Source of the DNA: a virus | Taxonomy: Duplodnaviria > Heunggongvirae > Uroviricota > Caudoviricetes | Length of the DNA stretch: 22,610 nt | IMG/VR virus record: IMGVR_UViG_2526164650_000003 | Reading direction: 5' to 3' (one strand) | Shown: piece by piece, positions 10,243 to 10,956 of the stretch | How the letters are laid out: every line of letters begins with the position of its first letter | Position numbering within the stretch: the first letter of the stretch is position 1 | Notes under the pieces: model-generated | Database searches by the model: none | What the model saw: the letters and a program-made list of their open reading frames with translations, nothing else | Told to the model about the DNA's origin: nothing | Made by a program: the position numbers and the translations under genes

Positions 10243-10543
10243 AACGCACACCTCCGGAAATACCTTCCCCAAGATGCATCAGTTCTTCGTCCGTTCGCTC
10301 CGGTATCCCGTTCTCTTCCGGTAAAAGGCTGAAATCAGCCACCGCAGCATCGCTGCTGCCGGACACCATTCTCACGATCAATGCCTTCAGCGAGGCAAAC
10401 TGCGCATCCATCCACACATCACTGAAGCTCTGCATCCGGAAATAATCGCCCCACTCACCAAGCTCAGTGGCCGACATATCCGACAGCATCCGCCGCCAGT
10501 CTGCCCGCCGGAACTCCCGGGCAAGCCGCATGACAAACTGCAT
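10214..10543 (-). CDS. T: Tail assembly chaperone T, expressed as a G-T fusion by programmed -1 ribosomal frameshift
   Basis: 109-aa ORF in the -1 frame relative to G; the T frame is open from 10582 through the G stop. Slippery-type heptamer G_GAA_AAG sits 2 codons before the G stop. Arrangement conserved in lambdoid tail modules. Confidence 0.75.
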   Translation of the reverse strand: MQFVMRLAREFRRADWRRMLSDMSATELGEWGDYFRMQSFSDVWMDAQFASLKALIVRMVSGSSDAAVADFSLLPEENGIPERTDEELMHLGEGISGGVRYGPDSQPGH

Positions 10544-10551
10544 TTCCCGCG

Positions 10552-10956
10552 TCAGGACTTTTCCGGCGTCAGCGCCTCATGATCATCATCCCCGGCATTC
10601 TCAATGGTCCCCATACCGCTCAGCGACAGAACCCTCTCCGCCCCCGCGCCCAGCGCATCATACGACCATGTTGTCATAATGGATGCGCAAAGCGTCTCAA
10701 CATCCTGAGACTGCTCAGCATTCCACAGTGAGCGGGAAACCAGCCAGGCATTGATATCCATTCCCATACGCAGAAAAGCAATCTGTCGTTCAGCCTCCGG
10801 CAGTTCTCCCTCCTGTGCATCAAACTTTGCCGTTCGCTGCTGAACAAACGTCAGATATTCAATTCTCTGCAGCCCGGACAGCTCACTGAGCACCACGGAC
10901 TGTTTTTCATAATTAAACGTATCCTGTTTCAGAAACATCATGTTCTCCGGATGCAA
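10552..10956 (-). CDS. G: Tail assembly chaperone G
   Basis: 134-aa ORF in the lambda G position (between V and H). Its 3' end overlaps the T reading frame, which sits in the -1 frame. Confidence 0.8.
   Translation of the reverse strand: MHPENMMFLKQDTFNYEKQSVVLSELSGLQRIEYLTFVQQRTAKFDAQEGELPEAERQIAFLRMGMDINAWLVSRSLWNAEQSQDVETLCASIMTTWSYDALGAGAERVLSLSGMGTIENAGDDDHEALTPEKS

Follow-up and report, generated by a model that had tools for sequence, protein, structure and literature searches.

A non-canonical heptamer, G_GAA_AAG, as the probable -1 frameshift site of a lambda-type G/T tail chaperone gene pair

Introduction

In lambda, the fusion made from the G and T reading frames connects two proteins, tape measure and tail tube, in tail assembly. 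Records of related phages place a frameshift of this kind on one particular heptamer. In N15 (NC_001901), a misc_feature described as 'slippery sequence for -1 translational frameshift' lies exactly on GGAAAAG, and in phi80 (FN582354) the identical misc_feature on GGAAAAG is accompanied by a joined gpG-T CDS. In Gifsy-2, which has the same ACGCCGGAAAAGTCCTGA as the locus described here, the T homologue is noted as part of a 'frameshift hybrid protein'. A search of open-access papers for GGAAAAG as a tail slip site returned nothing relevant; the supplement of the GeneTack paper holds an identifiable tail-chaperone sequence, with the canonical GCG_GGA_AAG. The use of G_GAA_AAG at G-T junctions is already recognised, and the finding reported here is real, ordinary and not new.

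The window, as we call the whole stretch of DNA analysed, comprises 22,610 nucleotides of a virus of the Caudoviricetes (IMG/VR record IMGVR_UViG_2526164650_000003). An original prediction, made from these letters, proposed that T is reached from G by a -1 shift on G_GAA_AAG and read its difference from the heptamer of lambda as a sign of a lower-efficiency or alternative slip site. We compared the junction with its relatives across the enterobacteria and with published frameshifting data. It is very probably where ribosomes make the programmed -1 shift between the two tail assembly chaperone genes (G/T) of a lambda-type pair.

Results

The G-T junction of the window

Two overlapping ORFs lie on the minus strand between a major tail protein gene and a tape measure gene. 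Immediately upstream is gene V, encoding the major tail tube protein (10997..11740, minus strand; PF16461, the lambda tail tube family, E=5.9e-67), and immediately downstream is the tape measure gene H (7195..10242, minus strand), whose start overlaps the end of T. The first of the two ORFs is gene G, a tail assembly chaperone gene (10552..10941, minus strand) identified from its translation by a match to PF06894 Phage_TAC_2 (E=2.7e-40). It encodes 129 aa counted from the ATG at 10941; its RefSeq relatives begin at the second ATG, 10938, and the gene is annotated as gpG in the near-identical CFSAN029787 prophage. The second is the T-frame extension (10214..10561, minus strand), whose translation matches PF06223 Phage_tail_T (minor tail protein T, E=4.6e-15) and which is read only after a -1 shift, as K-VLTREMQFVMRLAREF...GVRYGPDSQPGH, up to a stop at 10216-10214. 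A copy in E. coli CFSAN029787 that is 99.9% identical is annotated as tail tube, gpG, T and tape measure, and these genes are the V-G-T-H block of a lambdoid prophage.

Codons of T start one base upstream of those of G, which puts T in the -1 frame, as had been proposed. The T frame is open from 10576, next to a TGA at 10577..10579 (minus strand) that closes it upstream and sets the 5′ limit of the overlap, to the stop at 10216-10214; the original prediction had it open from 10582, 6 nt too far. G runs through ACG CCG GAA AAG TCC to its TGA at 10554-10552, leaving an overlap of 22 nt (10576..10555), and the sequence agrees with the predicted run CCG GAA AAG TCC TGA and its heptamer G_GAA_AAG. 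This heptamer (10558..10564, minus strand) stands 1 codon ahead of the G stop. Its 0-frame codons are GAA (10563-10561) and AAG (10560-10558), and its -1-frame codons are GGA (10564-10562) and AAA (10561-10559). Positions 1-3 (G, G, A) depart from the X_XXY_YYZ pattern, and the A-site half, A_AAG, is canonical. Within the 22-nt overlap there is no canonical X_XXY_YYZ heptamer, and the sole A_AAG sits inside G_GAA_AAG; the overlap leaves no room for the alternative slip site that had been suggested. The window as a whole has five copies of GGAAAAG, where chance alone would give 3.2; because the bare heptamer is not rare, the case is built on the frame, on the place of the heptamer in the 22-nt overlap and on its conservation across lineages.

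Between V and G, a strong GC hairpin is followed by a T run (GCCCCGGTTATCCGGGGC TTTTTG; 10960-10977, minus strand), in the position where the records of mEp460, Ayreon and N15 have annotated rho-independent terminators. This hairpin may act as an attenuator that reduces transcription of G-T-H relative to V.

State of the prophage

The prophage stops abruptly after its DNA-packaging FI gene (13106-13507, minus strand), and an IS110-family transposase gene (13771-14967, plus strand) stands where the intact relative L004 has capsid, portal and terminase genes. Judged by its gene content, the prophage is a defective remnant without the head module. The tape measure gene carries single-base insertions at 9950, 9155, 8155, 8145, 8131 and 8101 relative to two intact copies (98.2% and 98.8% identical) and is split into four reading frames. 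Five of the inserted bases are A and one is G, none lies in a homopolymer, and the first three and the last three each total +3; they could reflect pseudogenisation or an assembly error in a multi-copy prophage gene. With a disrupted tape measure gene and no head genes to go with it, the frameshift signal is probably idle in this prophage, an intact relic, and function here cannot be assumed in a defective prophage.

Elsewhere in the window, a Q antiterminator gene (16153-16848, minus strand) lies upstream of four tRNA genes (15667-15976, minus strand; Gly-UCC, Thr-UGU, Arg-UCU and Met/Ile-CAU), a layout typical of the late regions of lambdoid and Stx-type prophages. The heptamer AAAAAAG is found nine times on both strands of the window (2.9 expected; 0 of 100 shuffles reach 9), and four of the nine sites fall at 15022-15555, a concentration in the AT-rich stretch adjoining the tRNA cluster. 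An IS3-family element (17402-18558, plus strand) has a -1 frameshift arrangement of its own. Its orfA-like frame begins at ATG 17402 and meets an in-frame TAG at 17432-17434 (codon 11), an A7G run at 17653-17660 reads A_AAA_AAA in the orfA frame, and the -1 frame holds orfB (rve integrase core, 17740-18558). This second recoding site of the window probably belongs to a dead copy.

Conservation of the slip site across the gpT family

A T alignment was built and a collection of one genome per species was then scanned, which yielded 55 loci from Escherichia, Salmonella-like taxa, Citrobacter, Kluyvera, Kosakonia, Enterobacter, Klebsiella, Pantoea, Proteus, Providencia, Morganella, Edwardsiella, Sodalis and others, with T identity down to ~41%. 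The one-genome-per-species collection was used for the diversity analysis because the best 80 matches of an IMG/VR scan were near-identical copies only. Together with lambda, N15, phi80 and Gifsy-2, and after near-duplicates were collapsed, the loci gave 33 non-redundant PF06223 lineages. In every enterobacterial locus of the 55-locus set, an ORF the size of G precedes T, which is in the -1 frame to it; the other possible frame relation yields short ORFs only. A check of the homologues for a different frame relation thus found none, the -1 relation being kept across all 55 related loci, and T is always -1 relative to G among the 33 lineages.

The heptamer G_GAA_AAG is present in 26 of the 33 lineages. 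G_GGA_AAG occurs in two, Edwardsiella and lambda; in lambda, where the original prediction had placed it, it is found at the homologous position of the sequence. The remainder have A_GAA_AAG (one, Morganella), G_GTA_AAG (one, Pantoea), G_GGA_AAA (one) or G_GCA_AAA directly followed by TAG (two). Far from being unusual, the window's heptamer is, by this count, the norm of the family and lambda's is the exception.

The choice of codons at the slip site is fixed. The slip-site Glu codon is GAA in 27 of 27 cases, against 59% of Glu codons in the background of these G genes, and the slip-site Lys codon is AAG in 27 of 27, against 37% of Lys codons. In 26 of these 27 lineages GAA follows a G, at codons spread over six boxes (CCG, GCG, CTG, TTG, ACG and GTG) that encode Pro, Ala, Leu, Thr or Val and have background NNG frequencies of 0.30-0.54. 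Counting one event per codon box, the probability that all are G is ~0.004, a conservative figure, yet one computed on lineages that are not fully independent. Position 1 of the heptamer is G in 32 of all 33 lineages. Around this frozen site the C-terminal tail of G, which is acidic, is free to change both its sequence and its length, and the heptamer lies 0, 1 or 5 codons before the G stop. Fixed codons and a conserved synonymous base amid a variable tail argue for selection on the RNA that includes heptamer position 1, and the pattern points to tandem slippage of two tRNAs. On the T side, homology starts at the heptamer Lys in all lineages, with the consensus K-[VA]-x-x-x-E-[LRM]-x-F-x-x-x-L-A-R. 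Within this stretch lies the ATG at 10543; it is not conserved, and most lineages have Leu in its place.

Other non-canonical G-T slip sites were seen at loci of Kluyvera and Ewingella (L014, L016), Pantoea (L038, L039, L042, L054) and Morganella (L017, L018). In CTG_GCA_AAA_TAG, tRNA-Lys stands on A_AAA with a stop codon in the A site; G_GTA_AAG and A_GAA_AAG are likewise present in the gpT family.

Sequences flanking the slip site

A downstream stem-loop or pseudoknot stimulator was rejected on folding z-scores and on Rfam. Shuffled sequence folds just as well as the 88 nt downstream (z = -0.09), a 101-nt stretch that takes in the site and the bases after it has no significant fold (z = -1.40), and Rfam gives no match at the frameshift site, its matches in the window being the four tRNAs elsewhere.

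Upstream, an SD-like GAGG (10575..10578, minus strand) precedes the heptamer by exactly 10 nt, the same spacing as in dnaX. In the 33 lineages, SD-like cores (GGAG, GAGG, AGGA) cluster at 9-13 nt, with a clear peak at ~10 nt, and are absent at 0-8 nt. Five codons ahead of the slip-site Glu stands another, conserved Glu, and the tail of G is rich in Glu/Asp; this conserved codon and the acidity of the tail explain most of the peak. A core at 9-13 nt is observed in 13 of 33 lineages, against 9.2+-2.1 expected from a synonymous-recoding control in which the peptide was fixed and the codons were redrawn (P=0.06), and a core at exactly 10 nt in 9 against 4.3+-1.6 (P=0.004, for a spacing chosen post hoc). 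The element is common to about one third of the lineages, in different codon registers and in some cases with other heptamers, and is missing in N15, phi80 and lambda. It is conceivable, though we are doubtful, that the junction is a compact dnaX-like signal in which GAGG would pair with 16S rRNA and boost slippage on a heptamer with imperfect P-site re-pairing. If so, lineages that lack the element, such as N15, phi80 and lambda, would set their G:GT ratio differently, and the family would offer a natural series for testing the trade-off between middle-position G.U re-pairing and SD stimulation.

Proposed slippage and its expected efficiency

In the proposed mechanism, most ribosomes would read G through to its TGA and release gpG, and a small fraction would slip back by one base with tRNA-Glu on GAA in the P site and tRNA-Lys on AAG in the A site. 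The tRNA-Lys would re-pair perfectly with AAA, a codon that is cognate for it and in fact preferred by mnm5s2U34 (PMC6787027). On GGA, tRNA-Glu would form G:C, G.U at the middle position and A:U, that is, two Watson-Crick pairs and one G.U; the post-slip P-site GGA and its G.U pair had been put forward in the original prediction and are supported, with tRNA-Lys on AAA beside it. Reading would continue in the T frame to give a predicted G-T fusion of 128 + 114 = about 242 aa, with ...TPEK-VLTREMQF... at the join. We infer that slippage takes place here, that it is of the tandem (two-tRNA) mode, and how efficient it would be.

Published data place G_GGA_AAG among the three best heptamers. The tetramer A_AAG reaches 5.6% with a strong pseudoknot, yet in reporter assays without stimulators it is barely above background, at 0.147% against 0.112% (PMC4066793); this, the lack of a significant downstream structure and the departure of the heptamer from X_XXY_YYZ count against the frameshift reading. 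In vivo values in the dnaX context are 81% for A_AAA_AAG, 57% for G_GGA_AAG and 20% for A_GAA_AAG (Tsuchihashi & Brown, PMC6787027 Supplementary Table 3). Because G_GAA_AAG keeps the first-position G:C pair that is lost in A_GAA_AAG, its efficiency in that context would be expected to lie between ~20% and 57%, and it would probably work at about 0.35-1x lambda's heptamer, i.e. within ~3-fold. The G:GT ratio in lambda is ~30:1 (PMC5009743), which at 0.35-1x corresponds to roughly 1-3% frameshifting here, probably a low single-digit percentage. An efficiency below that of lambda's heptamer is plausible on these figures, and the difference would be modest. In the open-access literature searched, no frameshift measurement on G_GAA_AAG in a G-T context was found.

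Alternative origins of the T product

The identical protein would be made if only tRNA-Lys moved, from AAG to AAA, whether while in the A site or once in the P site with the following codon not yet decoded, and re-pairing of GAA to GGA in the P site would then be irrelevant. A_AAG is the best, most shift-prone tetramer in E. coli (PMC4066793). Despite poor P-site re-pairing, efficiencies of 20-29% are retained by A_GAA_AAG, A_ACA_AAG and A_AUA_AAG in the dnaX context (PMC6787027), and the Morganella relatives with A_GAA_AAG and the two lineages with A_AAA followed by a stop codon fit the same idea. However, a G at position 1 in 32 of 33 lineages, at a synonymous site, is unexpected if the last four bases sufficed, and the far higher value of G_GGA_AAG (57%) than of A_GAA_AAG (20%) in the same context (PMC6787027) argues that P-site pairing matters. 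We consider slippage of a single tRNA unlikely, and prefer tandem slippage of tRNA-Glu and tRNA-Lys.

Explanations that dispense with ribosomal slippage on this heptamer were also weighed. T could be made alone, with no frameshift, from the ATG at 10543 (MQFVMRLAREF...), as in RefSeq. RefSeq and most phage records list T as a free-standing CDS, which counts against the frameshift reading; PGAP and several phage records give a 109-aa 'tail assembly protein T' from this ATG, and GGGA lies just upstream of it. Yet the GGGA-to-ATG spacing is merely ~2 nt, the T-frame homology reaches past ATG 10543 up to the heptamer, and where the ATG stands, lambda, N15, phi80, Gifsy-2 and most other lineages have Leu. 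Levin, Hendrix and Casjens (1993, cited in PMC5009743) are reported to have found that lambda T sequences are produced only as the G-T fusion. Independent initiation of T was rejected, as ATG 10543 is not conserved, and we hold it to be very improbable. Transcriptional slippage, in which RNA polymerase would add or drop an A in the A4 run and so produce an mRNA that encodes the fusion, has a short A run at the site in its favour. That run is of four A's only, however, known bacterial transcriptional slippage requires far longer homopolymers (reviewed in PMC5009743), and the conserved flanking G_G and terminal G fit codon-anticodon re-pairing instead; hardly any probability attaches to it. The same holds for an artefact, in which a sequencing error or a pseudogene mutation made G_GAA_AAG from G_GGA_AAG or brought about the offset between the frames. 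Nor is the sequence flawless, the adjacent tape measure gene having six 1-nt insertions relative to intact relatives. But in an alignment over 12.3 kb to the two intact copies of the E. coli CFSAN029787 prophage these six insertions, all in the tape measure gene, are the sole indels, and none falls within G or T. The phages mEp460, Ayreon, Tritos and Gifsy-2 share the junction ACGCCGGAAAAGTC[C/A]TGA unchanged, as do 92 of 92 close copies (IMG/VR and species-representative genomes), ~1,850 complete E. coli replicons contain a G-T segment that is 95-99% identical, and G_GAA_AAG is also found in distant species. A sequencing error at the G-T junction was excluded on the indel-free alignment of G and T and the match to relatives, and a check for a canonical site hidden by such an error found none, the junction being base-for-base the same in intact relatives. 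The preferred reading is still tandem -1 slippage on G_GAA_AAG.

Discussion

Frameshifting between G and T is a textbook recoding event, and the scientific stakes of one more instance are small. Motif searches limited to X_XXY_YYZ would nevertheless miss the commonest heptamer of the gpT family. RefSeq/PGAP (relatives L004 and L005) and the records of mEp460, Tritos and Ayreon list G and T as separate CDSs, and no G-T fusion with ribosomal slippage is annotated in the RefSeq relatives L004 and L005. In protein cluster P0001, T is a 109-aa product of the non-conserved internal ATG, with 1,148 member sequences. Because T is annotated as free-standing and the fusion is omitted, protein databases for the most part do not contain the actual product. 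The P-site variants of the family (G_GAA, G_GGA, G_GTA, G_GCA and A_GAA) are in addition a natural set for testing thermodynamic models of frameshifting.

Compared with the closest known systems, the window's site shares with E. coli dnaX (an SD-like element, 10 nt, A_AAA_AAG and a stem-loop) the A-site AAG and a single tRNA-Lys, as well as an SD-like GAGG 10 nt upstream and a 0-frame stop close by. It differs in having GAA and not AAA in the P site, and lacks a supported downstream stem-loop. Its SD-like element is short and statistically marginal, and the efficiency expected is a few percent, against ~50-80% for dnaX.

Lambda has homologous G (PF06894) and T (PF06223) genes in the order V-G-T-H; its -1 shift falls on the homologous dipeptide, and in the A site it slips, like the window's site, from AAG to AAA. 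The heptamers differ by one base, so that the P site holds GGA (Gly) in lambda and GAA (Glu) in the window. The tRNA-Gly of lambda re-pairs on GGG, a wobble change, whereas the tRNA-Glu of the window would re-pair on GGA with a middle-position G.U. The T proteins are ~38% identical.

Genes 14/15 (gpG / gpG-T) of N15 and phi80 belong to the same families and share with the window the -1 relation, the heptamer and a homologous post-slip peptide, phi80 T being ~42% identical to window T. N15 and phi80 have GCG (Ala) before GAA where the window has CCG (Pro), their G stop lies 5 codons past the heptamer and not 1, and they do not have the GAGG at 10 nt that the window has.

Gifsy-2 (STM1039/STM1041.1n), mEp460, cdtI, Tritos and Ayreon have a junction, ACGCCGGAAAAGTCCTGA, identical to that of the window. 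DNA of the mEp460 group is 96-97% identical to it, and Gifsy-2 has GAGG 10 nt upstream, as the window does. Among these phages the frameshift appears in the annotation of Gifsy-2 only, the others listing G and T as separate CDSs. Unlike the prophage of the window, all five are intact, functional phages.
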